Shown here: one piece after another, positions 2,985-39,368 of the stretch
Numbering within the stretch: the first letter of the stretch is position 1
Layout: each line of letters starts with the position of its first letter
Sequence record: OR545379
From: Escherichia phage Sekstaphage-1
Reading direction: 5' to 3' (one strand)
DNA length: 39,368 nucleotides
The notes under the pieces: model-generated
The model's database searches: none
Told to the model about the DNA's origin: nothing
Seen by the model: the letters and a program-made list of their open reading frames with translations, nothing else
Made by a program: the position numbers and the translations under genes

Positions 2985-5639
2985 ATGAACATCATCGAAA
3001 CTATCGAAAAGAACGACTTCTCTGAAATCGAACTGGCTGCAATCCCGTTCAACACTCTGGCAGACCATTACGGTAGCGCATTGGCTCGTGAACAACTAGC
3101 TTTAGAGCATGAGTCTTATGAGCTAGGCGAGCGCCGCTTCCTCAAGATGCTTGAGCGTCAAGCGAAAGCTGGTGAGATTGCAGACAACGCAGCCGCTAAG
3201 CCATTACTCGCTACGCTTCTCCCTAAGTTAACCGCACGTATCGTCGAGTGGCTCGAAGAGTACGCATCGAAGAAAGGCCGCAAGCCTAGCGCTTATGCTC
3301 CGCTCCAGCTACTCAAGCCGGAAGCCTCCGCGTTTATCACCCTGAAAGTTATCCTTGCGTCACTGACCAGCACGAGCATGACAACCATTCAGGCCGCTGC
3401 TGGTATGCTGGGGAAGGCCATTGAGGATGAGGCACGTTTCGGGCGCATCCGTGACCTCGAAGCGAAGCACTTCAAGAAGCACGTTGAGGAACAGCTTAAC
3501 AAGCGCCACGGGCAAGTCTACAAGAAAGCCTTTATGCAGGTGGTCGAGGCCGATATGATTGGTCGAGGTCTGCTTGGTGGCGAGGCGTGGTCTAGCTGGG
3601 ATAAAGAAACCACGATGCACGTAGGGATTCGCCTGATTGAAATGCTGATTGAATCCACGGGTCTGGTGGAATTACAGCGCCACAACGCAGGTAACGCAGG
3701 CTCTGACCATGAGGCACTGCAACTGGCCCAAGAGTACGTGGACGTATTAGCGAAGCGTGCAGGCGCTCTAGCGGGTATCTCTCCGATGTTCCAGCCGTGT
3801 GTCGTACCGCCGAAACCTTGGGTAGCAATCACCGGGGGCGGCTATTGGGCTAACGGTCGCAGACCTTTGGCACTCGTTCGCACTCACTCTAAGAAGGGTC
3901 TGATGCGCTACGAAGATGTGTACATGCCAGAAGTTTATAAGGCGGTCAACATTGCACAGAACACCGCATGGAAAATCAATAAGAAAGTCCTCGCGGTTGT
4001 CAACGAGATTGTGAACTGGAAGAACTGCCCTGTAGCAGACATTCCTTCGCTGGAGCGCCAAGAGTTACCGCCTAAGCCGGACGACATTGACACCAACGAG
4101 GCAGCACTAAAGGAGTGGAAGAAAGCCGCCGCTGGTATCTACCGCTTGGACAAGGCACGAGTGTCTCGCCGTATCAGCTTAGAGTTCATGCTGGAGCAGG
4201 CCAACAAGTTCGCAAGCAAGAAAGCAATCTGGTTCCCTTACAACATGGACTGGCGCGGTCGTGTGTATGCTGTGCCGATGTTCAACCCGCAAGGCAACGA
4301 CATGACGAAAGGTCTGCTGACCCTCGCTAAAGGCAAGCCAATCGGTGAGGAAGGTTTCTACTGGCTGAAAATCCACGGTGCGAACTGTGCGGGTGTCGAT
4401 AAGGTTCCTTTCCCTGAGCGCATCGCGTTCATTGAGAAGCACGTAGACGACATTCTGGCTTGCGCTAAAGACCCAATCAATAACACTTGGTGGGCCGAGC
4501 AGGATTCACCTTTCTGTTTCCTCGCGTTCTGCTTCGAGTATGCAGGCGTTGCTCACCACGGTCTGAGTTACAATTGCTCTCTGCCGCTGGCGTTCGACGG
4601 GTCTTGCTCTGGTATCCAGCACTTCTCCGCGATGCTCCGCGATGAGGTAGGCGGTCGTGCGGTTAACCTGCTGCCAAGCGAAACCGTGCAGGACATTTAC
4701 GGCATCGTTGCACAGAAAGTAAACGAGATTCTCAAACAGGATGCAATCAACGGCACACCTAACGAGATGATTACCGTGACCGACAAGGACACCGGGGAAA
4801 TCTCAGAGAAGCTCAAGCTGGGAACCTCAACGCTGGCGCAACAGTGGCTGGCATATGGTGTAACCCGTAGCGTAACTAAACGTTCGGTCATGACGCTGGC
4901 CTACGGCTCCAAGGAGTTCGGCTTCCGTCAACAGGTACTGGACGACACCATTCAGCCTGCGATTGACAGCGGTAAGGGCTTGATGTTCACCCAACCTAAC
5001 CAAGCGGCTGGCTATATGGCTAAGCTGATTTGGGACGCGGTGAGCGTGACCGTAGTCGCAGCGGTTGAGGCGATGAACTGGCTCAAGTCTGCCGCTAAGC
5101 TGCTGGCTGCTGAGGTCAAGGACAAGAAGACCAAGGAGATTCTGCGCCACCGTTGCGCGGTTCACTGGACTACGCCTGACGGCTTCCCGGTCTGGCAGGA
5201 ATACCGTAAGCCACTCCAGAAGCGTCTCGACATGATTTTCTTAGGGCAATTCCGTCTGCAACCGACGATTAATACCCTCAAGGATTCAGGCATTGATGCG
5301 CACAAGCAGGAGTCTGGCATTGCGCCTAACTTTGTTCACTCACAGGACGGTAGCCACCTCCGTATGACAGTCGTTTATGCTCACGAGAAGTATGGCATTG
5401 ATTCCTTTGCGCTCATCCATGACAGCTTTGGGACTATCCCGGCAGACGCTGGTAAGCTCTTTAAGGCTGTGCGTGAAACGATGGTAATTACCTACGAGAA
5501 CAACGATGTGCTGGCAGACTTCTATGACCAGTTTGCAGACCAGCTACACGAGACCCAACTGGACAAGATGCCTCCGCTTCCGAAGAAAGGAAACCTGAAC
5601 CTGCAAGACATTCTCAAGTCTGACTTTGCCTTTGCATAA
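2985..5639 (+). CDS. 1: Single-subunit DNA-dependent RNA polymerase (T3-type promoter specificity)
   Basis: 884 aa from the ATG at 2985 (MNIIETIEKNDFSEIELAAIPFNTLADHYG); collinear with T7 RNAP. The track ORF at 2892 is an in-frame upstream extension. Confidence 0.97.
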   Translation: MNIIETIEKNDFSEIELAAIPFNTLADHYGSALAREQLALEHESYELGERRFLKMLERQAKAGEIADNAAAKPLLATLLPKLTARIVEWLEEYASKKGRKPSAYAPLQLLKPEASAFITLKVILASLTSTSMTTIQAAAGMLGKAIEDEARFGRIRDLEAKHFKKHVEEQLNKRHGQVYKKAFMQVVEADMIGRGLLGGEAWSSWDKETTMHVGIRLIEMLIESTGLVELQRHNAGNAGSDHEALQLAQEYVDVLAKRAGALAGISPMFQPCVVPPKPWVAITGGGYWANGRRPLALVRTHSKKGLMRYEDVYMPEVYKAVNIAQNTAWKINKKVLAVVNEIVNWKNCPVADIPSLERQELPPKPDDIDTNEAALKEWKKAAAGIYRLDKARVSRRISLEFMLEQANKFASKKAIWFPYNMDWRGRVYAVPMFNPQGNDMTKGLLTLAKGKPIGEEGFYWLKIHGANCAGVDKVPFPERIAFIEKHVDDILACAKDPINNTWWAEQDSPFCFLAFCFEYAGVAHHGLSYNCSLPLAFDGSCSGIQHFSAMLRDEVGGRAVNLLPSETVQDIYGIVAQKVNEILKQDAINGTPNEMITVTDKDTGEISEKLKLGTSTLAQQWLAYGVTRSVTKRSVMTLAYGSKEFGFRQQVLDDTIQPAIDSGKGLMFTQPNQAAGYMAKLIWDAVSVTVVAAVEAMNWLKSAAKLLAAEVKDKKTKEILRHRCAVHWTTPDGFPVWQEYRKPLQKRLDMIFLGQFRLQPTINTLKDSGIDAHKQESGIAPNFVHSQDGSHLRMTVVYAHEKYGIDSFALIHDSFGTIPADAGKLFKAVRETMVITYENNDVLADFYDQFADQLHETQLDKMPPLPKKGNLNLQDILKSDFAFA

Positions 5640-5675: not shown

Positions 5676-5712
5676 TAAACTCAAGGTCATCTTCGGGTGG
5701 CCTTTGTGATTA
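5676..5712 (+). promoter_or_regulatory. RNase III processing hairpin (R1.1-like)
   Basis: AAACTCAAGGTCATCTTCGGGTGGCCTTTGTGATT. Confidence 0.65.
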
Positions 5713-5746
5713 ACTTTCAATACACATCAACATGAGGTAAGATACT

Positions 5747-5887
5747 ATGCGTACCAACTTTGAGAAATTTACCAAGCGCGATTCAGTGGTCAACGAGAAT
5801 GGCGAACAGTGGCAAGAGCGCCGTGACCGCATGAAGAAACGCCACAAGCAACAGCGCGGTAACTCACAGAAACGGGAGTGGAACTAA
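5747..5887 (+). CDS. 1.1: Small basic protein, gene 1.1 homolog
   Basis: 46-aa ORF (MRTNFEKFTKRD...QKREWN) below the track length cut-off; resembles T7 gp1.1 as I recall it. Confidence 0.7.
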   Translation: MRTNFEKFTKRDSVVNENGEQWQERRDRMKKRHKQQRGNSQKREWN

Positions 5888-5889
5888 CG

Positions 5890-6162
5890 ATGGGACGTAT
5901 CTATAGCGGAAACCTGAACGATTACAAGGACGCCATTGAGCGCCTTAAAGAAGACCACGATGTAACAGTGTCGATGGAGACATTCAGCTACGAAAACCCG
6001 GCGAAGATGTGCAGGTCATGTGGTGAGGTTCTCCGTGTGTTCACACGCTCCGGGCATCTGGTGGCATCCAGAACCTTCGAGCATAGCGACAGCGATGTAC
6101 AAATCAACGCGCAGACTGCATGGCTCCGTAAGGTTCACAGCGAATTGAAACACTGGAAGTAA
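5890..6162 (+). CDS. 1.2: Inhibitor of host dGTP triphosphohydrolase (gp1.2)
   Basis: 90 aa from ATG 5890 (MGRIYSGNL...LKHWK); matches T7 gp1.2 at both ends. The track start at 5878 is a GTG extension. Confidence 0.85.
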   Translation: MGRIYSGNLNDYKDAIERLKEDHDVTVSMETFSYENPAKMCRSCGEVLRVFTRSGHLVASRTFEHSDSDVQINAQTAWLRKVHSELKHWK

Positions 6163-6200: not shown

Positions 6201-6656
6201 ATGAGAATTTCATTTGACTTAATGAGTCCTTCCTTTCTCTCATGGGATACGGGTCGTCACACTGGCGGCTCTATTCGCAACGGCTATAGAAGGGTTCGTT
6301 ATGAAGGTAAGTGGTTAAACCATCACATACTCATTTGGGAACACTTCAACGGTGCAGTCCCGGAGGGAATGGAAGTAGACCACATTGACCGTAACAAACT
6401 TAACAACGCGCCTAGTAACCTTAGACTTGTGACCCGCTCTGAGAACAACCGAAATCGGTCAGTACACCGGAACAACAAGTCAGGAATCAAAGGTGTCTAC
6501 TGGCACAAACACCGCCAAGTTTGGTACGGTCAGTGTCGAAGGGGCAACAAAACATTTATCACCGCTGGTTGCTCCACGAAGGAACAGGCGGCAGAACTTT
6601 TAGAGAAACTCAAAGAGGAAATTAATTATGATGATTTTCAAAACCGTCCCGTATAA
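6201..6656 (+). CDS. Free-standing HNH homing endonuclease with C-terminal AP2-like DNA-binding domain
   Basis: 151 aa with AAAGGAGG ribosome-binding site; HNH_3-type core WLNHHILIWEHFNGAVPEGMEVDHIDRNKLNNAPSNLRLVTRSEN and AP2-like GIKGVYWHK...KTFITAGCSTKEQAAELLEKL; sits between gene 1.2 and the ligase. Confidence 0.85.
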   Translation: MRISFDLMSPSFLSWDTGRHTGGSIRNGYRRVRYEGKWLNHHILIWEHFNGAVPEGMEVDHIDRNKLNNAPSNLRLVTRSENNRNRSVHRNNKSGIKGVYWHKHRQVWYGQCRRGNKTFITAGCSTKEQAAELLEKLKEEINYDDFQNRPV

Positions 6657-12875: not shown

Positions 12876-14834
12876 ATGCTCGTAAGTGACATTGAGGCCA
12901 ACAACCTCTTAGAGAAAGTCACCAAGTTTCACTGTGGCGTCATCTATGACTACCGTGATGGTGAGTATCATAGTTATCGTCCGGGCGACTTCGGGGCGTA
13001 TCTGGATGCGCTGGAAGCCGAGGTGAAGCGAGGTGGGCTTATTGTTTTCCATAACGGTCACAAGTATGACGTTCCTACATTGACCAAACTGGCAAAGCTG
13101 CAATTGAACCGAGAGTTCCACCTTCCTCGTGAGAACTGTATCGACACCCTTGTGCTGTCACGCTTGATTCACTCTAACCTAAAGGACACCGATATGGGTC
13201 TTCTACGTTCCGGTAAACTTCCGGGGAAACGCTTTGGGTCTCACGCTCTGGAGGCGTGGGGTTATCGCTTAGGCGAGATGAAGGGTGAATACAAGGATGA
13301 CTTTAAGCGTATGCTTGAAGAGCAAGGCGAAGAATACGTTGACGGAATGGAGTGGTGGAACTTCAATGAAGAGATGATGGACTATAACGTTCAGGACGTT
13401 GTGGTCACTAAGGCTCTCCTTGAGAAGCTACTCTCTGACAAACATTACTTCCCTCCTGAGATTGACTTTACGGACGTAGGTTACACTACGTTCTGGTCAG
13501 AATCCCTTGAGGCCGTTGATGTTGAACATCGCGCTGCATGGCTACTCGCTAAGCAAGAGCGCAATGGATTCCCGTTTGACACGAAAGCAATCGAAGAGTT
13601 GTACGTAGAGTTAGCTGCTAGACGCTCTGAGTTGCTACGTAACTTGACCGAAACGTTTGGCTCGTGGTATCAACCTAAAGGTGGAACAGAAATGTTCTGC
13701 CATCCACGAACAGGTAAGCCACTACCTAAATACCCTCGCATTAAGATACCTAAAGTTGGTGGTATCTTTAAGAAGCCTAAGAACAAGGCACAGCGAGAAG
13801 GCCGTGAGCCTTGCGAACTGGATACCCGCGAGTACGTTGCTGGCGCTCCTTATACTCCAGTGGAGCACGTAGTGTTTAACCCTTCGTCTCGTGACCACAT
13901 CCAGAAGAAACTCCAAGAGGCTGGGTGGGTCCCAACTAAGTTCACCGATAAGGGTGCTCCTGTGGTGGACGATGAGGTACTCGAAGGAGTACGCGTAGAT
14001 GACCCTGAGAAGCAAGCGGCTATCGACCTCATTAAAGAGTACTTGATGATTCAGAAGCGAATCGGACAGTCTGCTGAGGGAGACAAGGCATGGCTTCGTT
14101 ACGTTGCTGAGGACGGTAAGATTCATGGTTCTGTTAACCCTAATGGAGCAGTTACGGGTCGTGCGACCCATGCGTTCCCCAACCTTGCGCAAATTCCGGG
14201 TGTACGTTCTCCTTATGGAGAGCAGTGTCGCGCTGCTTTTGGCGCTGAGCACCATTTGGATGGGATAACTGGTAAGCCTTGGGTTCAGGCAGGTATCGAC
14301 GCATCCGGCCTTGAGTTGCGCTGCTTGGCCCACTTCATGGCTCGCTTTGATAACGGTGAGTATGCTCACGAGATTCTTAATGGTGACATCCACACTAAGA
14401 ACCAGATGGCTGCTGAATTACCTACCCGTGATAACGCTAAGACGTTCATCTATGGGTTCCTCTATGGTGCTGGTGATGAGAAGATTGGGCAGATTGTTGG
14501 TGCTGGTAAAGAGCGCGGTAAGGAACTCAAGAAGAAATTCCTTGAGAACACACCTGCGATTGCAGCACTACGTGAGTCTATACAACAGACGCTTGTCGAA
14601 TCCTCTCAGTGGGTAGCTGGTGAGCAGCAAGTCAAGTGGAAACGCCGCTGGATTAAAGGTCTGGATGGTCGTAAGGTACACGTTCGTAGTCCTCACGCTG
14701 CCCTGAATACCCTACTGCAATCCGCTGGTGCTCTCATCTGCAAACTGTGGATTATCAAGACCGAAGAGATGCTCGTAGAGAAAGGCTTGAAGCACGGCTG
14801 GGATGGGGACTTTGCGTACATGGCATGGGTGCAT
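12876..14834 (+). CDS. 5: DNA polymerase gene 5, exon 1 (codons 1-653)
   Basis: Collinear with T7 gp5 up to ...[13 protein letters not shown]; the ORF then runs into intron sequence and stops after 7 unrelated codons. Confidence 0.95.
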
Positions 14835-15435
14835 AAACTATTTCATTGTGCACATTAAATCTGGTGAACTCGGTGAAACCCTACTGGGGCAATACCGAGC
14901 CAAGCCATAGGGAGGATATATGAGAGGCAAGAAGTTAATTCTTGAGGCCACTGAGACTGGCTGTATCATCCCTACGTCACACAAACTTAATGCCGATGGT
15001 TATTTCAGAAAGAAAACCAATGGCACATTGGAAATGTATCACAGAACGGTGTGGAAGGAGCATAACGGAGACATACCTGATGGCTTCGAGATAGACCATA
15101 AGTGTCGCAATAGGGCTTGCTGTAACATAGAACATTTACAGATGCTTGAAGGTACAGCCCACACTGTTAAGACCAATCGTGAACGCTACGCAGACAGAAA
15201 GGAAACAGCTAGAGAATATTGGCTGGAGACTGGATGTACAGGCATGGCACTCGGTGAGAAGTTTGGTGTGTCGTTCTCTTCCGCTTGTAAGTGGATTAGA
15301 GAATGGAAGGCGTAGAGACTATCCGAAAGGAGTAGGGCCGAGGGTGAGACTCCCTCGTAACCCGAAGCGCCAGACAGTCAACTCAAAGGCTGATGATATA
15401 GTCCGACACTCCTAGTAATAGGAGAATACAGAAAG
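14835..15435 (+). mobile_element. Group I self-splicing intron in the DNA polymerase gene, carrying an HNH endonuclease ORF
   Basis: 601 nt separate two in-frame polymerase segments; exon 1 ends in U (14834); GTGCAC at 14848-14853 can pair with the exon end GTGCAU giving the U-G pair typical of P1; the intron ends in G (15435). Confidence 0.85.
14920..15315 (+). CDS. Intron-encoded HNH homing endonuclease
   Basis: 131 aa with GGGAGGA ribosome-binding site; HNH/zinc motif DGFEIDHKCRNRACCNIEHLQMLEGTAHTVKTN; lies wholly inside the intron. Confidence 0.85.
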   Translation: MRGKKLILEATETGCIIPTSHKLNADGYFRKKTNGTLEMYHRTVWKEHNGDIPDGFEIDHKCRNRACCNIEHLQMLEGTAHTVKTNRERYADRKETAREYWLETGCTGMALGEKFGVSFSSACKWIREWKA

Positions 15436-15591
15436 GATGAAATCCAAGTAGGTTGCCGTACCGAAGAGATTGCTCAGGTGGTCATTGAGACAGCACAAGA
15501 AGCAATGCGCTGGGTTGGAGACCACTGGAACTTCCGGTGTCTTCTGGATACCGAAGGTAAGATGGGTCCTAATTGGGCCGTATGTCACTAA
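15436..15591 (+). CDS. 5: DNA polymerase gene 5, exon 2 (codons 654-704)
   Basis: Encodes DEIQVGCRTEEIAQVVIETAQEAMRWVGDHWNFRCLLDTEGKMGPNWAVCH, the C-terminus of T7 gp5; in frame with exon 1 once the intron is removed, giving 704 aa. Confidence 0.9.
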   Translation, partial: DEIQVGCRTEEIAQVVIETAQEAMRWVGDHWNFRCLLDTEGKMGPNWAVCH

Positions 15592-31800: not shown

Positions 31801-32837
31801 GCACTCAAGAGTTGGCTGCACGTTCTCCTTGGACGTTGATGCTCAACGGCACCTCCAACTACATTCTAGATGCTGCCCGTCAGGGTGTGCTTGGAGATGT
31901 GGCTGGTGCAGCCCTAGCCGGGAAAGGCTCCAAGTTCGGCAAGGCGAATTACCTTAAGTCTGCCTCAATCAGCCCTGAGCAGTGGAACGGAATCAAGCAG
32001 TTGTTCCGCGACCACGCGACTCGTGAGGCTGACGGTAAGTTTACCATCAAGGATAAACAGGCTTTTGCTAATGACCCACGCTCAATGGACTTGTGGCGTC
32101 TGGCTGACAAGGTGGCTGATGAGACTATACTTCGTCCACACAAGGTTTCCTCACAGGATGCCAAGGCATTCGGTGCCGGAGTTAAGATGGTGATGCAGTT
32201 TAAGAACTTCGTCATCAAGTCCCTGAACTCCCGGTTTGTCCGTAGCTTCTATGAGGCAACGAAGAACAACCGAGCGTTAGACCAAGCGTTGACTCATGTC
32301 ATCTCCTTAGGTCTGGCTGGCGGTTACTACGTTGGTCAGGCACACCTCAAGGCTGCAAGCCTACAGGAACATAAACGTAAGGAGTACCTTAAGAACGCAC
32401 TTGACCCGAAGATGATTGCCCATGCATCAATCTCTCGTAGTTCGCACTTAGGCGCACCATTGGGTATCTATGACATGCTCGCTGGGATGGTTGGCAGCGA
32501 TACCTATAAGTATACACGCTCCACGGTACTCCCTAAAGAGTCTGAGAAGCGCGACCCTAGCAAGGCAGCAACGGGTAGACAGGTGGCTTCAACCATCGCT
32601 GGTGCGGTTGGTGAGCAGGTTCCGGGTTTGGGGTTTATTGGCTCTGTAGGAGCAACAGCAATTAATGCTGCTTCCCTACTGTCTTCTCCCAACAAAACAA
32701 CCGCTCTGGAGTTCCGTACAGGTCTCTTCAACACCTCTCGTGAGTTGATTCCTAATGACCCGCTCTCACAGCAACTCATCATGAAAATCTACGAGGCCAA
32801 CGGCATCCGCATAAAGGAGTCCCCGAAGAAACAATAA
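28875..32837 (+). CDS. 16: Internal virion (core) protein D with N-terminal lytic transglycosylase domain (gp16)
   Basis: 1320 aa collinear with T7 gp16; N-terminal transglycosylase-type segment GPKGLMQFTKGTA...AALAYNQGEG. Confidence 0.95.
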   Translation: MSYDKNKPSEFDGLFQKAADNHGVSYDLLRKLAFNESSFNPKAKSPTGPKGLMQFTKGTATALGLKVTDAEDDDRYNPELAVDAAARHLSDLIRKYDGDELKAALAYNQGEGRNGAPQIQAYDKGDWASISEEGRNYMRNLMDVANSPRKGDLEAFGGITPKAKGIPSEEAFAGIGKKQTVGTDLPESTGFKVEGKEQQAPNMPYAKDFWEKTGTTLDEFNSRSTFFGIGDATSAELHNSVLGVAFRAARSDDGFDLFKDTITPTRWNSHTWTPEELERIRKEVKNPDYINVVTGGSPENLDALIKMANDNYAMDAQAADAGIGARLTAGIVGAGVDPLSYVPLVGVAGKGLKVANKAFIVGTQSAGLAVASEGLRTSIAGGESHYADAALGGLMFGAGMSAISDAIAAGIRRSRGNEVVNDFAPMAHRLEARETAQNTGGEDLTRMPSENRVFDREHAGVEYSPLETEPGAVVLPQGQILSDTNPLNPQTLSEFEAVNPERAARGISLGGFTEIGLKTLRSENPTVRSIASDLVRSPTGMESGTSGKFGATASDIKERLHANNQRTYNQLYDAVRAAMKDPEFSTGGSKMSRKEIRQEIYKRAALAIERPELQANLTKGERNVMNILKQHFDLKREIMENPSIFGNTKATSIFPGSRHKGTYVPNVYDRALKIDMIKRYGNDGLQRAIAESWLTSYRARPEVKARVDEYLMELSGLKSVQEVTPEMVQKHAMDKAYGISHTDQFSASSIIEDNIEGLVGIENNNFLEARNMFDSDMAVTLPDGNTFSVNDLRTYDMAEILPAYDRRVDGDVAIMGGSGKTTKDLKDEIMALDKQSEGNGTLKGEVEALKDTVKILTGRARRNPEGAWGTALRSVNDLTFFAKNAYMGAQNITEIAGMLAKGNVSAITHGIPMINDWVNRGKPLRASEIKELHGMVFGKELDQLIRPGREDHVRRLRESTDTNAAVANVVGTIRFGTQELAARSPWTLMLNGTSNYILDAARQGVLGDVAGAALAGKGSKFGKANYLKSASISPEQWNGIKQLFRDHATREADGKFTIKDKQAFANDPRSMDLWRLADKVADETILRPHKVSSQDAKAFGAGVKMVMQFKNFVIKSLNSRFVRSFYEATKNNRALDQALTHVISLGLAGGYYVGQAHLKAASLQEHKRKEYLKNALDPKMIAHASISRSSHLGAPLGIYDMLAGMVGSDTYKYTRSTVLPKESEKRDPSKAATGRQVASTIAGAVGEQVPGLGFIGSVGATAINAASLLSSPNKTTALEFRTGLFNTSRELIPNDPLSQQLIMKIYEANGIRIKESPKKQ

Positions 32838-32916: not shown

Positions 32917-34920
32917 ATGGCTACAACTATTAAGACCGTGATGACTTACCCACTGGATGGCTCCACTACGGACTTTAATATTCCGTTCGAGTATCTGGCG
33001 CGTAAGTTCGTCCGAGTGACCCTTATCGGTGTTGACCGAAAGGAACTCATCTTGAATCAAGACTATCGTTTTGCAACTAAGACCACAATCTCCACAACGA
33101 GAGCATTGGGGCCAGCGGACGGATATACTTTGATTGAAATCAGGCGATTCACCTCCGCTACAGATCGTCTGGTTGACTTTACCGACGGCTCTATCCTGCG
33201 GGCATATGATTTGAACATATCTCTGGTTCAGGCCCTTCACGTTGCTGAGGAAGCCCGTGACCTTACCGCTGATACAATTGGCGTTAACAATGATGGGAAC
33301 TTGGATGCTCGTGGTCGTAAGATTGTGAACCTAGCGTTCGCCACCAGTGACTATGATGCTGTCCCTCTGAAGCAGGTTAAGGAACGTGAGACCTCTGTGT
33401 GGAGTGCTGTTGCTAAAGCTGATGAACATGCTAACCGTTCTAACACTGAGGCTAACCGTTCTCGTGATGAGGCCAACCGTGCTCAACGTGAAGCTGACCG
33501 CTCAACGCAACAGGCAGGTGTCTCTACGCAACAAGCGGTTGAGTCCAAGAAGCAAGCTGACCGTTCCAACTCTGAGGCCAACCGTGCTAAAGGTTACGCT
33601 GATAGTATGCCAGCCAGTGTTGAAGCCGCAAAGGGTCACGCTGACCGTTCCAATAAGGAAGCTGACCGTGCTCGTGATGAGGCCAATCGTGCTGCTGGAG
33701 AAGTCACTAAGGCGGCTGCTGAGGTTGCCAAGGCTGCTGCACATGTTGAGACCGCTAAGGGACATGCTGACCGAGCCAACACTGAGGCAAACCGCTCCAA
33801 GAGTGAAGCTGACCGTGCAAAGACCGAGGCTGACAAGTTAGGCAACATGAATGCACTTGCAGGGGCTGTTGAAAGTGTATCAGGCAATGATGTACGCTTT
33901 AAGGGTAAAGTAAGTGGGCGCAGTCTGACTCTACATAATGATGCTAAAGGCGCTGGGACTCAACCAGTAGACCAAGTGTGGAATCAGTGGCGTGGTCAGG
34001 ACTCTAAGGAGACTGTGTGGGAACAGTGGATTCAAGCTGGGACAAAACGAATGGACTACTATGCGTTCACTAACACCGACCCGGCAACGTGGCCTGAAGG
34101 TCGTTCCAATAGCAAAGGACACCATAGCTTCTATGGTGACGTTCTGTTTGCTGGTGGTAACGTCGAGATGCACGGGAACCTTAAGGTAAACGCAGTTGAG
34201 TCTAGAAATAACGTGTTCATCTCCGACAAAGCCGCAAGTTTCAAGAGTAACACACATGGTGGTGGCTGGAACCAGTGGACTAGTAGCTTGAATCCAGACC
34301 TACAGCATGATATTGCTGGACAAGGGGACGTTGCATATCTCCTTGAGAGGGCTACAATTTGGGGCAAAGAACACCTGTATGCCAAGTGCTTATATAACAA
34401 CGGCACTGGCGCTAACTTCTTTATCAGGCAATATCTGCGAGGCACCTATTTCGACCTACGCTCCGATGGTGTCCTTGCCTGCTCTTCTGGTTGGAACATC
34501 CCAGCCGATGGTAACCTATATATCAAGAAGTACGGAATGTACATTGATGCGTGGGTAAATAATCGTCTGTCCGAACATGCCTACAACAAAGGAGAAGTGA
34601 ACAACTTGGTCAACGGTCGTCTTACCACTGGTCAGGGTGATGGTCGCTATGTCCGCAAGAACGCTGGGTGGGCTGAGGTCTGGAGCGGCCATGCTGGTGG
34701 TGGTGTTTCCGTAGGTCTCTCACAGGATGTCCGATGGAGAACTATCTGGATTCAAACTAATGGGCGCTGGAACGCTGTTCCTATTGGTGACGACGCACGA
34801 TACTTCATCTCGTCTGATGGTGGTTGGCTTAAGTTCACAATCTCTAACAACGGGAGAACTTTCCGTAATGATGCTGACCGTAGTTCTGTGCCTACGAGAA
34901 TCTTGATTCAAAACCAATAA
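32917..34920 (+). CDS. 17: Tail fibre protein (gp17)
   Basis: 667 aa from ATG 32917 (MATTIKTVMTYPLDGSTTDFNIPFEYLARKF...); N-terminal 150 aa and the C-terminal tip (...WSGHAGGGVSVGLSQDVRWRTIWIQ...) are T7 gp17-like; the centre is repeat-rich. Confidence 0.93.
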   Translation: MATTIKTVMTYPLDGSTTDFNIPFEYLARKFVRVTLIGVDRKELILNQDYRFATKTTISTTRALGPADGYTLIEIRRFTSATDRLVDFTDGSILRAYDLNISLVQALHVAEEARDLTADTIGVNNDGNLDARGRKIVNLAFATSDYDAVPLKQVKERETSVWSAVAKADEHANRSNTEANRSRDEANRAQREADRSTQQAGVSTQQAVESKKQADRSNSEANRAKGYADSMPASVEAAKGHADRSNKEADRARDEANRAAGEVTKAAAEVAKAAAHVETAKGHADRANTEANRSKSEADRAKTEADKLGNMNALAGAVESVSGNDVRFKGKVSGRSLTLHNDAKGAGTQPVDQVWNQWRGQDSKETVWEQWIQAGTKRMDYYAFTNTDPATWPEGRSNSKGHHSFYGDVLFAGGNVEMHGNLKVNAVESRNNVFISDKAASFKSNTHGGGWNQWTSSLNPDLQHDIAGQGDVAYLLERATIWGKEHLYAKCLYNNGTGANFFIRQYLRGTYFDLRSDGVLACSSGWNIPADGNLYIKKYGMYIDAWVNNRLSEHAYNKGEVNNLVNGRLTTGQGDGRYVRKNAGWAEVWSGHAGGGVSVGLSQDVRWRTIWIQTNGRWNAVPIGDDARYFISSDGGWLKFTISNNGRTFRNDADRSSVPTRILIQNQ

Positions 34921-34967
34921 TGGAATACAACGAGGCCACGGATGGTCTCAACAATAAGGAGGACACA

Positions 34968-35494: not shown

Positions 35495-35896
35495 ATGGAA
35501 GGAATGTATAGAAGTGGTGGTTACTGGAAGGTTACTATAAACGGTAAAGTACACGGTGTACACAGGTTGTTGTGGGAAGCTGCCTATGGCTCAATACCAG
35601 ATGGTTATGTTATAGACCACATTGACAGAGATGGTCTTAATAATTCTCTTGATAACTTACGGTGCATACCGAAGGGAGCTAACAAGGCAAACACTGTATC
35701 CTCAAGGGACTTACCGAAGGGAGTATACTCTCGGTTTGCCAAGCGACTTAACTGCATTGTGTACTATGGGGATATTAGAATGGGAGGTGTGAAGAAAACA
35801 CATGCTCCTACTAAGAATCTGAAGGAAGTCGTGGACTGGTCTATTAAGACTCACAAGCAGATGCTGGGGGAAACATATGGGATTCAAAACAGTTAA
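35495..35896 (+). CDS. Free-standing HNH homing endonuclease with AP2-like domain
   Basis: 133 aa from ATG 35495 with AGGAGG ribosome-binding site; HNH core HRLLWEAAYGSIPDGYVIDHIDRDGLNNSLDNLRCIP; sits between gene 18 and gene 18.5. Confidence 0.85.
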   Translation: MEGMYRSGGYWKVTINGKVHGVHRLLWEAAYGSIPDGYVIDHIDRDGLNNSLDNLRCIPKGANKANTVSSRDLPKGVYSRFAKRLNCIVYYGDIRMGGVKKTHAPTKNLKEVVDWSIKTHKQMLGETYGIQNS

Positions 35897-36332
35897 GAGC
35901 TACGCCATCGCTGTGGCCTTTGCCTTGGGGATGACCCTTGCGTACAACCACGGCTATGACAAGGCTAACACTAAATGGGAACAGGAGGTGCACAATGAGT
36001 ACGTTAAGAAAGTTGAGGCGACTGCGGATAAACAGGCTGCTCTCAATGAAGTCTCACGACAATACCAAGAAGACCTTGCGGCGCTGGAAGGCAGCACTGA
36101 TAGGGTCATTAATGATTTGCGTAACGATGGTAAGCGGCTGTCAGTCCGCGTCAAGAACCTTACCGGACTACCGAAAGGTGACGGTCGATGCGAGTTTGAT
36201 GGTCGAGCCGAACTACACGAGTCAGATGCTAAGCGTATTATCGGAATAGCCCAAGCTGCTGATGCTCACGTAAGAGCGTTGCAGAAAACTATTAAGGAGA
36301 TGCAGAATGAGCGACACCCAAGCAAATCGTAA
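35877..36332 (+). CDS. 18.5: Inner-membrane spanin (Rz-like, gp18.5)
   Basis: 151 aa; N-terminal transmembrane segment [15 protein letters not shown], then [16 protein letters not shown]...[20 protein letters not shown] matching T7 gp18.5. Confidence 0.85.
35995..36249 (+). CDS. 18.7: Outer-membrane lipoprotein spanin (Rz1-like, gp18.7) embedded in gene 18.5
   Basis: 84 aa from ATG 35995 in the +1 frame of gene 18.5; signal peptide with lipobox (VSGC) and Pro-rich mature part; AGGAGG ribosome-binding site. Confidence 0.8.
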   Translation: MSTLRKLRRLRINRLLSMKSHDNTKKTLRRWKAALIGSLMICVTMVSGCQSASRTLPDYRKVTVDASLMVEPNYTSQMLSVLSE

Positions 36333-38070
36333 TGCGCTAATCATTGCGCAGCTTAAGGGTGACTTCGTGGCCTTCCTGTTCGTATTGTGGAAGGCTTTGG
36401 CTCTCCCGCCACCGACTAAGTGTCAGATTGATATGGCCCGGTGTCTGGCTAACGGAGACAACAAGAAGTTTATCCTACAGGCTTTCCGTGGTATCGGTAA
36501 GTCATTCATCACCTGTGCGTTCGTTGTGTGGACGTTATGGCGTGACCCTCAGTTAAAGATACTGATTGTCTCTGCATCCAAAGAACGTGCGGACGCTAAC
36601 TCCATCTTCATTAAGAACATCATTGATCTTCTGCCCTTCTTGGCTGAGCTAAAGCCTCGTCCCGGTCAGCGTGACTCTGTGATTAGTTTCGATGTTGGCC
36701 CTGCCAAGCCTGACCACTCTCCGTCTGTGAAGTCGGTGGGTATCACTGGTCAGTTGACTGGTAGTCGTGCTGATATCATCATAGCGGATGACGTTGAGAT
36801 TCCGTCTAACTCCGCAACTCAAGGTGCCCGTGAGAAGCTGTGGACTCTGGTGCAGGAATTTGCTGCGCTTCTGAAACCGCTGCCGACCTCTCGCGTTATC
36901 TACCTTGGTACGCCTCAAACCGAAATGACCTTGTACAAGGAACTCGAAGATAACCGTGGGTACACCACAATCATCTGGCCCGCGCTCTATCCGCGTAGCC
37001 GTGAGGAAGACTTGTACTATGGCGACCGTCTGGCCCCGATGCTCCGCGAAGAGTTCAACGATGGGTTCGAGATGCTCCAAGGTCAACCGACTGACCCCGT
37101 GCGCTTCGATATGGAAGACCTGCGTGAGCGTGAGTTGGAATACGGTAAGGCTGGCTTCACTTTGCAGTTCATGCTCAACCCGAACCTGAGTGATGCCGAG
37201 AAGTACCCCTTACGCCTCCGTGATGCTATCGTGTGCGGTCTGGACTTCGAGAAAGCCCCAATGCATTACCAGTGGCTTCCGAACCGTCAGAATCGCAATG
37301 AAGAGCTACCTAACGTGGGCCTTAAGGGTGATGACATTCATAGCTATCATTCATGCAGTCAGAACACTGGACAGTACCAACAGCGCATCCTCGTGATTGA
37401 CCCTAGTGGTCGCGGTAAGGATGAGACAGGTTACGCAGTGTTGTTCACCCTGAATGGCTACATCTATCTGATGGAAGCTGGCGGGTTCCGCGATGGTTAT
37501 TCCGATAAGACCCTTGAGTCCCTCGCTAAGAAAGCGAAGCAGTGGAAGGTTCAGACAGTGGTCTTCGAGAGTAACTTCGGGGATGGTATGTTTGGTAAGG
37601 TATTCAGCCCGGTTCTCCTGAAACACCATGCAGCGCAGCTTGAAGAGATTCGTGCTCGTGGTATGAAGGAACTACGCATTTGTGATACGCTGGAGCCTGT
37701 ACTCTCTACGCACCGCCTTGTGATTCGTGACGAGGTGATTCGTGAGGACTACCAGACTGCCCGTGACGCCGATGGCAAGCATGACGTTCGATACTCGTTG
37801 TTCTACCAGTTGACCCGTATGGCTCGTGAGAAGGGCGCTGTGGCCCACGATGACCGACTTGATGCGTTAGCATTAGGTGTGGAGTTCTTACGCTCTACGA
37901 TGGAACTGGACGCCGTGAAGGTGGAAGCTGAGGTGCTTGAGGCATTCTTAGAGGAACACATGGAGCACCCAATCCATTCGGCTGGTCACGTAGTTACCGC
38001 TATGGTTGACGGGATGGAACTCTATTGGGAGGATGACGATGTGAATAGCAACAGGTTCATTGACTGGTAA
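36307..38070 (+). CDS. 19: Terminase large subunit (gp19)
   Basis: 587-aa ORF; size and position of T7 gp19; overlaps the end of gene 18.5 as in T7. Confidence 0.95.
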
Positions 38071-38079
38071 GGAGGTAAT

Positions 38080-38514
38080 ATGTTTGACGTGAGGTATGAC
38101 CCGGATGTGCCGGGGTGCCTCTCTAACTCTAAGGGTGAGCAACTCGCAGTTCTACAAGGAGAATACTTCAAGTGGAACGGCGGGAGTGCTCATCGTATTA
38201 TATGGGAAGGCTTCAATGGGAGGATACCAGACGGTTACATGGTTGACCATATAAACCGCAACAAGCAGGACAATCGGATAGAGAACCTACGACTGGTCAC
38301 TCGGTCCCAGAATGTCCACAACTCCAAGCGTAAGAGGGCCGATGGGATGCCCAAAGGAATTACAGCACGCCAGCGGGACTTTAGGATTCTGGTCCATAAG
38401 GATTGTAAGAAGTACGTAAGGTACGCACCGACACTTGCGGAAGCCATAAAGGTCCGCGAGGAGCTTGTAGAGTCCTTGGGCCTGTCTGCATATTATGTCG
38501 ATTCATCCGCATAA
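38080..38514 (+). CDS. Free-standing HNH homing endonuclease with AP2-like domain
   Basis: 144 aa with AAGGAGG ribosome-binding site; HNH core HRIIWEGFNGRIPDGYMVDHINRNKQDNRIENLRLVTRSQN and AP2-like KGITARQRDFRILVHKDCKKYVRYAPTLAEAIKVREEL; starts 10 nt after the gene 19 stop. Confidence 0.85.
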   Translation: MFDVRYDPDVPGCLSNSKGEQLAVLQGEYFKWNGGSAHRIIWEGFNGRIPDGYMVDHINRNKQDNRIENLRLVTRSQNVHNSKRKRADGMPKGITARQRDFRILVHKDCKKYVRYAPTLAEAIKVREELVESLGLSAYYVDSSA

Positions 38515-38573
38515 GGATTCATTGAGACCACGGATGGTCACTTTAAGAAACTCCTTAAGAATCAATGAGTTTG

Positions 38574-38596
38574 CATTAACCCTCACTAAAGGGAGA
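38574..38596 (+). promoter_or_regulatory. Phage RNAP promoter (phiOR-like)
   Basis: cATTAACCCTCACTAAAGGGAGA. Confidence 0.85.
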
Positions 38597-38736: not shown

Positions 38737-38886
38737 ATGTTACGCTTGCTGATTGCCCTGCTGCGTCATAGAGTCACTTGGCGATTTCTTATTGTACTTG
38801 GTGCTGCCATTGGGTACGCAGGTCTTACTGACAACCTCAGTGAACTGGAAATGGCCTTTTGCTCTCTACTCTCTTGTAGCGATTAA
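38737..38886 (+). CDS. 19.5: Gene 19.5 homolog (small hydrophobic protein)
   Basis: 49 aa MLRLLIALLRHRVTWRFLIVLGAAIGYAGLTDNLSELEMAFCSLLSCSD, closely matches T7 gp19.5; AGGAGG ribosome-binding site. Confidence 0.85.
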   Translation: MLRLLIALLRHRVTWRFLIVLGAAIGYAGLTDNLSELEMAFCSLLSCSD

Positions 38887-39141: not shown

Positions 39142-39368
39142 TCTCACAGTGTAAGAACCTCAAGTACCCCCATAGCCCTCTTAAAGCCACCAAAAGGAAG
39201 CCCTACCCCTAGGGTTTAACCTTCGGTTAACCTTGGGTCTCTCATCAAGTGGCCTATAGGATAGCCTAAAGTGGTGCCTAAAGTCAATACCTAAAGTGAT
39301 GGCTGCCTATTGGAGACTTAAAGAGTGTCCTAGTGTACCAGTTCGATAGTACATCTCTATGTATCCCT
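39142..39368. repeat. Right direct terminal repeat (TR)
   Basis: Identical to 1..227. Confidence 0.9.

Follow-up and report, generated by a model that had tools for sequence, protein, structure and literature searches.

The genome of Escherichia phage Sekstaphage-1 (sequence record OR545379) carries, directly downstream of its large terminase gene, an ORF encoding a 144-aa protein (positions 38080-38514, plus strand), which is probably a free-standing homing endonuclease gene of the HNH/AP2-like type that is still active or was so until recently. The gene would be expressed late, together with the terminase, and its product is predicted to promote cutting and copying near the junction of gene 19 and the phiOR promoter. 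The best reading of the sequence alignments is that it was acquired from a phage of the Przondovirus group. The window, i.e. the whole stretch of DNA that was analysed (39,368 bp; G+C content of 50.5%), constitutes the complete genome of a T3-like phage (Teetrevirus). It is 96.6% identical to T3 over 94% of its first 25 kb, its ends are formed by an exact direct terminal repeat of 227 bp, and it contains 12 exact matches to the consensus of T3-type promoters (ATTAACCCTCACTAAAGGGAGA), with 0 expected in shuffled sequences.

The large terminase subunit (587 aa) is encoded by gene 19 (36307-38070, plus strand; Pfam Terminase-T7_RNaseH-like, E=3.3e-40), which shares 97-99% nucleotide sequence identity with its counterparts in phages LL2 and VSG32 and ends with a TAA stop codon (38068-38070). 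This codon is separated by 9 nt from the ATG start codon of the HNH ORF (the ATG begins at the 10th base), and it is overlapped by the Shine-Dalgarno sequence of the latter, AAGGAGGT (38069-38076, plus strand), recognized by reading of the sequence. The spacing between the GGAGG core of this site and the ATG, 4 nt, is rather short, and little RNA structure is predicted around the site (-2.2 kcal/mol). The 3′ side of the ORF is followed by a native T3-type hairpin (GACCA-cgga-TGGTC; 38526-38539, plus strand), identical in T3 and LL2, whose Przondovirus counterpart (GGCC-acggaa-GGCC) occupies the same place. The phiOR promoter for the phage RNA polymerase (38575-38596, plus strand), an exact match to the T3 consensus, is separated by 60 nt from the end of the ORF and forms the downstream limit of the intergenic gap; phiOR is annotated at the homologous position in T3, and the next gene beyond it is gene 19.5 (38737-38886). 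The initial annotation had described a 144-aa ORF that follows immediately after gene 19, fills the gap up to a phiOR-type promoter and is preceded by a strong ribosome-binding site, and each of these elements is present.

The nearest phage promoter upstream of the HNH ORF is located at position 32834. Since the 9-nt gap leaves no space for a promoter or a terminator, the ORF should share the late transcripts of the terminase gene, and translational coupling is possible. The G+C content of the ORF (50.6%) is close to that of the genome (50.5%), so that its composition gives no sign of a foreign origin. A second HNH_3 gene is located at 35495-35896 and, together with the ORF at 38080-38514, it brackets genes 18.5 and 19.

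The only Pfam family matched by the 144-aa protein is HNH_3 (PF13392), which scored 80.2 bits (cut-off, 24.8; E=8.3e-23) over positions 3-45 of the 46-position profile. Among the PHROGs families, the protein was assigned to phrog_99, "HNH endonuclease" (E=7e-33). The catalytic core (residues 37-79; 38188-38316, plus strand) contains residues D56, H57, N69 and N78, which align onto D74, H75, N87 and N96 of the homing endonuclease I-HmuI (1U3E), the sole sequence match in the PDB (E=0.003), and do not vary among 20 aligned homologues. Judging from this correspondence, the predicted beta-beta-alpha-metal catalytic residues (general-base His, metal-binding Asp/Asn and structural Asn) are all intact; the roles of the catalytic residues of I-HmuI were reportedly established by Shen et al. 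in 2004. I-HmuI, from Bacillus phage SPO1, is a strand-specific nickase. It is intron-encoded, comprises 174 aa and has a helix-turn-helix C-terminal domain, whereas the protein described here is free-standing, comprises 144 aa and ends with a predicted AP2-like domain. The classical HNH family PF01844, to which we take the HK97 gp74-type packaging HNH proteins to belong, was not matched by the 144-aa protein, which contains just two cysteines (C13 and C108) and therefore no zinc-binding CxxC pairs. Foldseek comparison with viral models retrieved many phage "HNH (homing) endonucleases" aligned over the full length of the protein, with E-values down to 1e-9.

The initial annotation labelled the product of the ORF as HNH-AP2. 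The HNH part of this label agrees with the Pfam match, whereas the AP2 part was not recovered by a sequence profile and is supported by the predicted fold and by AP2-positive homologues. Pfam AP2 (PF00847) gave no match at E<=10 with either the whole protein or the isolated C-terminus, and HNH_3 was the only one among the precomputed Pfam domains in six members of the clade found between the terL stop codon and phiOR (the 144-aa protein, P0001, P0003 and P0005-P0007). Pfam AP2 was matched at the corresponding position in 8 of the 20 aligned homologues, and an hhalign comparison of the C-termini of the close clade with the AP2-positive C-termini yielded a probability of 75% (E=2.6e-5). In the AlphaFold2 model, which is of moderate confidence overall (mean pLDDT 76, pTM 0.43) and reaches pLDDT values of 87-94 across residues 91-130, the C-terminus consists of three strands followed by one helix. 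The predicted DNA-binding domain of three beta strands and a helix spans approximately residues 92-132 (38353-38475, plus strand). Foldseek comparison of the model with the PDB returned nothing significant (best E=0.13), and an hmmsearch of the C-terminal profile against PDB sequences yielded nothing beyond noise (kinesin light chains, E>0.2). The C-terminal domain is thus modelled as AP2-like in fold, and it is probably an AP2 homologue that has diverged past the Pfam model.

HNH-AP2 homing endonucleases were reportedly described by Magnani, Sjolander and Hake in 2004. The ORF resembles such HNH-AP2 or "IPA-HNH" genes (the latter name being that of Barth, Nguyen and Seed 2023) in (i) the combination of an N-terminal HNH_3 core with a C-terminal, here predicted, three-strand-and-helix DNA-binding domain, and (ii) its free-standing position adjoining an essential phage gene, in this case that of the terminase, at a boundary of genetic exchange. 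It differs from them in that its C-terminal domain is too diverged for Pfam AP2. Within the family, the 144-aa protein stands at the small end, and its clade is tied to one intergenic site, from the terL stop codon to phiOR. When the five alleles of this site were compared, their N-terminal and HNH parts were well conserved and the AP2-like part was highly diverged.

We also performed a detailed comparison of the region with Klebsiella phage SH-Kp 152410, which delimited a Przondovirus-type cassette of approx. 450 bp (38070-38519, plus strand; defined by alignment), composed of the ribosome-binding site, the ORF and a few nucleotides of 3′ flank. The cassette shares 96-99% nucleotide sequence identity with SH-Kp 152410 when the ORF is divided into three large bins, and 93-100% identity across all segments of 38071-38514. 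The corresponding values are 74-84% for the main part of gene 19, 56% for its last 120 nt and 60-76% for the region downstream of the cassette. Because the flanks are only 56-84% identical and the cassette 96-99%, both breakpoints are sharp. The left one is placed within 38065-38070, where GAC TGG is of T3 type and the TAA stop codon is common to all occupied alleles (at empty sites gene 19 ends with TAG or TGA, not TAA). The right one lies within 38519-38523, where GGATTCATT, of Przondovirus type, is followed by GAGACCACGGATGGTCAC, of T3 type. Recombination breakpoints on either side of the ORF, which were among the features proposed for inspection in the initial annotation, are thus present at both ends of the cassette, and on the alignment both flanks are of T3 lineage.

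These junctions leave no co-conversion tract on the left of the cassette and one of approx. 5-9 nt on the right. Such a tract would be unusually tight for double-strand-break repair between genomes of 56-84% identity; recombination that is microhomology-mediated or selected agrees with it no less well than classical homing. The left edge may owe its sharpness to selection against a foreign C-terminus of the terminase; in T3, gp19 contacts the prohead with its C-terminal end. An allele encoding a protein of 140 aa (see below) has approx. 45 nt of foreign 3′ flank, including the GGCC-type hairpin, and in phage KLB4 it is also accompanied by six changes within the last 20 nt of gene 19. The flank lengths of the 144-aa and 140-aa alleles therefore differ, and co-conversion tracts vary between events. 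The dS between this phage and SH-Kp 152410 is 0.05, and that between either of them and phage IME321 is 0.23-0.27, which indicates deeper allele diversity within Przondovirus. From this diversity, and from the Przondovirus-type bases kept 3′ of the stop codon, we infer that the transfer ran from Przondovirus to the T3 lineage.

The presence or absence of the ORF among close relatives, on which the initial annotation had made its reading depend, proved to be polymorphic. In Teetrevirus phages T3 and LL2 the sequence runs straight from the gene 19 stop codon into the phiOR region; T7 and two Przondovirus phages, K11 and KP32, likewise have an empty site, and among the 40 best-matching Teetrevirus records the matched region is in most cases devoid of an HNH feature. 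The 144-aa allele was found in only three T3-like genomes, i.e. in this phage and in VSG32 and ChM-G5 (Klebsiella phages from Russia), which carry the same ORF with 99% identity and with identical junctions. Of the recipient phages, VSG32 and ChM-G5 infect Klebsiella, and the phage analysed here is a coliphage; like T3, it grows on laboratory strains of E. coli. The 140-aa allele (59% aa sequence identity) occupies the identical junction in six T3-like Klebsiella/Serratia phages (KLB4, PoeticCupcake, mtp14, Poynor, SM9-3Y and SALSA), and all occupied alleles, whether of the 144-aa or of the 140-aa type, share the junction TAAGGAGG.

Many Przondovirus phages are also occupied. A tblastn search yielded 59 phage records at >=90% aa sequence identity, nearly all of them Klebsiella phages of 40-42 kb, and homologues are labelled "HNH homing endonuclease" in dozens of GenBank records. 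In the three Przondovirus records that were opened (SH-Kp 152410, K5 and IME321), the gene is likewise located 9 nt past the terL stop codon. Three metagenomic alleles (P0003, P0005 and P0006, with 66, 62 and 55% aa sequence identity, respectively) each directly follow a T7-like terL, whose product shares 71-74% aa sequence identity with gp19, and each precede a phiOR-type promoter of another specificity. As far as these sequences indicate, the clade is confined to the interval from the terL stop codon to phiOR in T7-like phages. The less closely related homologue P0009 precedes the portal gene of another T7-like contig and was assigned to a different site family. Several copies are damaged: the gene of Przondovirus K5 has a 19-nt deletion that leaves an ORF of 123 codons, further copies, 5′-truncated or frameshifted, occur in 175005, JB48 and K16PH164C3, and P0004 encodes only 91 aa. 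Such copies fit the cycle of invasion, decay and loss of homing endonuclease genes.

The 144-aa protein is under purifying selection. The overall dN/dS is approx. 0.06-0.28 (0.09-0.28 across the 144-aa allele and 0.06-0.16 between alleles), which indicates that the protein is maintained by selection. Purifying selection on homologues in more than 60 phage records, the Pfam match (E=8e-23) and the strong Shine-Dalgarno sequence together make it extremely improbable that the ORF is a fortuitous reading frame or an artefact of annotation without a product, a view for which nothing speaks further than its small size.

The same data bear on whether the element is still mobile. It could have entered the T3 lineage from a Przondovirus in a single recombination event, legitimate or illegitimate, and have since been inherited vertically, encoding a protein that no longer spreads itself, so that its intactness would reflect a recent arrival. 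A single event is indeed expected to leave the identical junctions and 99% identical cassettes seen in this phage, VSG32 and ChM-G5; flanking co-conversion is essentially nil, decayed copies exist in Przondovirus, and the 3 changes that separate this phage from VSG32 are too few to reveal selection inside the T3 lineage. Against a passive or retired element stand the full set of intact catalytic residues, the low dN/dS values both across the 144-aa allele and between alleles, and the exact trimming of the transferred segment to the ribosome-binding site and ORF. The five diverged alleles at one genomic site in different genera are also hard to explain without site-specific mobility. We consider a passive element to be rather unlikely.

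In the favoured interpretation of an active or recently active homing endonuclease gene, the AP2-like and N-terminal domains would, upon co-infection with a phage devoid of the gene, recognize and bind a specific sequence located at the empty gene 19/phiOR junction or close to it, and the HNH site would then nick or cut the DNA of that phage. Repair of the break by the T7-type recombination machinery, using the gene-carrying genome, would copy the cassette into the recipient. The allele most likely originated in a Przondovirus, with the transfer occurring during a co-infection of Klebsiella, and it may then have reached this phage, VSG32 and ChM-G5 by descent or by further homing.

The initial annotation called the large terminase gene a recurrent target of free-standing homing endonucleases in phages. 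The insertion is intergenic, just past the stop codon; the terminase coding sequence is at most a candidate target of cleavage. Inspection of the empty sites of T3, LL2, K11, KP32 and T7 revealed that the terL stop codon is followed at once by the sequence TTATGCA-N7-TGCATA(A/G)GGA and then by a second short hairpin. The first hairpin is part of the minimum-energy fold in all three empty sites tested (T3, K11 and T7) and is lost in this phage. The fold z-scores of the empty sites range from -0.6 to -2.3 and are not significant alone, so that the hairpin is to be regarded as a conserved sequence with a predicted structure. The 3′ end of the ORF, comprising its nine final codons and the stop codon (38487-38514, plus strand; TGCATATTATGTCGATTCATCCGCATAAGGA, compared with TTATGCATATTGAGTGCATAAGGA in LL2), overlaps an apparent altered remnant of it. 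This alteration hints, indirectly, that the occupied allele may be immune to cutting.

Since the two cassette-sharing genera show poor conservation at the 3′ end of gene 19, we hypothesize that the endonuclease would more plausibly recognize the intergenic hairpin element than the coding sequence of the terminase. The specific proposal that the whole terL-site clade recognizes the hairpin TTATGCA-N7-TGCATAA/G of T3-, T7- and K11-type phages, and not coding sequence, is a speculative one, to which we give a low probability. If it were true, one small endonuclease could home across genera (from Przondovirus to Teetrevirus, and from a Klebsiella phage to a coliphage), and the cassette of approx. 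450 bp would constitute a natural broad-range gene-drive element for T7-like phages, with the fast-diverging AP2-like domain retuning its specificity lineage by lineage.

The position of the ORF next to the terminase gene, with which it is probably co-translated, and the bracketing of genes 18.5 and 19 by two HNH_3 genes would also suit a nuclease that serves the phage itself, either as a packaging accessory of the terminase, like HK97 gp74, or as a weapon against competitor or host DNA or a counter-defence factor, with mobility as a side effect. Packaging and homing have been considered compatible for terminase-adjacent HNH genes by Barth et al. (PMC10448857), who also discuss the HK97 gp74-type HNH proteins of packaging modules studied by Kala et al. 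(2014). The 144-aa protein and gp74 are both small HNH proteins encoded beside terminase genes. However, the former belongs to HNH_3 rather than PF01844 and has no CxxC pairs, and its gene adjoins the terminase genes on the other side: it follows terL in a phage that has direct terminal repeats and no cos site, instead of preceding terS next to a cos site. Unlike a conserved packaging component, the ORF is also dispensable: T3, T7, K11, KP32, LL2 and most relatives package their DNA without it, and broken copies are present in viable phages. A function in the service of the phage is therefore improbable.

A location beside the terminase gene is common among homing endonuclease genes, in line with the initial annotation. 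Terminase genes are found in 35% of the neighbourhoods of T5orf172 homing endonuclease genes and in 14% of those of HNH-AP2 genes (Barth, Nguyen and Seed 2023; PMC10448857), and the latter cluster beside essential genes, including terminase, and mark the boundaries of genetic exchange (PMC10448857). In T4, a free-standing intergenic endonuclease gene of the Seg or Mob type cuts a relative devoid of the gene and is copied during repair, sometimes with flanking markers (PMC10448857). The mechanism proposed here is the same as in this "intronless homing" (marker exclusion). The systems differ in that Seg proteins are GIY-YIG enzymes, in that the HNH enzymes of the Mob type possess other DNA-binding modules, and in that the co-conversion tracts of Seg/Mob extend over tens to hundreds of nucleotides, compared with close to zero in this case.

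Within the same phage subfamily, the HNH endonuclease of T3 gene 5.3 and the phiI/W31-type endonuclease of a DNA polymerase intron were reportedly characterized by Bonocora and Shub (2004, 2009). These are likewise HNH homing endonuclease genes, free-standing or intron-borne, that adjoin an essential gene; they occupy another locus (after or inside gene 5) and belong to phrog_6254, as opposed to phrog_99. T3 gp5.3 and the 144-aa protein share approx. 31% identity across 71 residues. This type of endonuclease has been mentioned as an example of "collaborative homing" (PMC10448857).

The element is thus an ordinary one, known in outline, since both its class and its habit of adjoining terminase genes have already been described (PMC10448857). 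In T7-like phages it is routine to find small HNH homing endonuclease genes next to essential ones, and the present gene carries little weight for basic biology. Literature searches for a biochemical study of the terL-site HNH clade found none. Escherichia phage Sxt1, isolated from the Sextaphage cocktail, has been reported to contain four "homing HNH nuclease" genes that are absent from T3 and T7 (PMC11680406); the HNH genes were already noted there as parasitic, almost certainly on the basis of this same phage. What appears to be added to the earlier sources comprises (i) the boundaries of the cassette at base level, (ii) its Przondovirus origin, (iii) the site-specific family of five alleles and (iv) the AP2-like fold. 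The cassette provides a clean example of inter-genus transfer with base-level breakpoints, which bears on DNA exchange among the phages of therapeutic cocktails.

A family-profile scan of all reading frames revealed exactly 4 HNH_3-like ORFs in the genome. A search of the whole genome against Rfam gave no match at the gathering thresholds, and a DNA polymerase intron surfaced only under an E-value threshold. Another of the HNH endonuclease genes of this phage is located inside this intron.

In addition to the HNH_3 gene located downstream of gene 19 (large terminase gene), the Sekstaphage-1 genome contains a second gene of this type (35495-35896; 133 aa; Pfam E=1.6e-17), flanked by the small terminase gene (gene 18) and the spanin gene (gene 18.5). 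This gene is missing in T3, VSG32 and LL2, and its G+C content is 42.8%, versus 50.5% for the genome. Together with the HNH gene at 38080-38514 it brackets genes 18.5 and 19, an arrangement resembling the "HEG islands" described by Barth et al. (PMC10448857). The gene 18/18.5 region is of a non-T3 type; its closest matches (80-93%) are in Kluyvera phage Kvp1 and in Salmonella and Pectobacterium phages. The Yersinia fPS phages (approximately 73% in this region) carry an HNH gene at the position equivalent to 35495-35896.

The third extra HNH_3 gene (6201-6656; approximately 151 aa) lies ahead of the ligase gene, directly 3′ of a phage promoter (6161-6182), where it replaces approximately 70 nt of T3. 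Visual inspection suggests that the C-terminus of the predicted protein is AP2-like. The segment containing T3 gene 1.05 (T3 5677-5985) is absent from the Sekstaphage-1 genome.

Mapping of T3 gp5 onto the genome revealed that the DNA polymerase gene (12876-15591) is interrupted. The first exon (12876-14834) corresponds to gp5 residues 1 to approximately 653 and the second (15436-15588) to residues 654-704. The 601-nt insert between them (14835-15435) covers the full length of the Rfam group I intron model RF00028 (E=9e-10), with a score of 44 bits, which is slightly below the gathering score of 50. U is the final base of the exon and G the final base of the intron. A loop of the intron accommodates an HNH ORF (14920-15315), whose product shares 48% identity with T3 gp5.3. 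This intron is similar to the polymerase introns of phages phiI and W31. The word "intron" is absent from the paper describing Escherichia phage Sxt1 (PMC11680406).

Gene 19/phiOR junctions devoid of an HNH gene contain a predicted hairpin, found in T3 (L005 3353-3400), LL2 (L002 2572-2620), K11 (L010 4424-4470), KP32 (L009 4543-4590) and T7 (L017 1832-1880). This element, TTATGCA-N7-TGCATA(A/G), begins 0-1 nt past the terminase stop codon; across three genera its arms are kept, while the loop varies. A second predicted hairpin, located 3′ of the first, displays compensatory differences (GACCA/TGGTC versus GGCC/GGCC). Neither hairpin is annotated in the T3 and T7 records examined. In VSG32 (L001, approximately 3080-3110, homologous to 38569-38596 of Sekstaphage-1), which carries the same HNH cassette, approximately 27-28 nt are nevertheless missing, including the entire phiOR promoter; this gap could be a true deletion or an assembly error.

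Positions 33337-34932, which hold the distal portion of the tail-fibre gene along with the beginning of the lysis/packaging region, gave no blastn alignment to T3 of 100 nt or longer. This result is consistent with the replacement of the tail fibre described for Sxt1 (PMC11680406). The genome is bounded by an exact direct terminal repeat of 227 bp (1-227 and 39142-39368), which shows 92% identity to the 231-bp repeat of T3.
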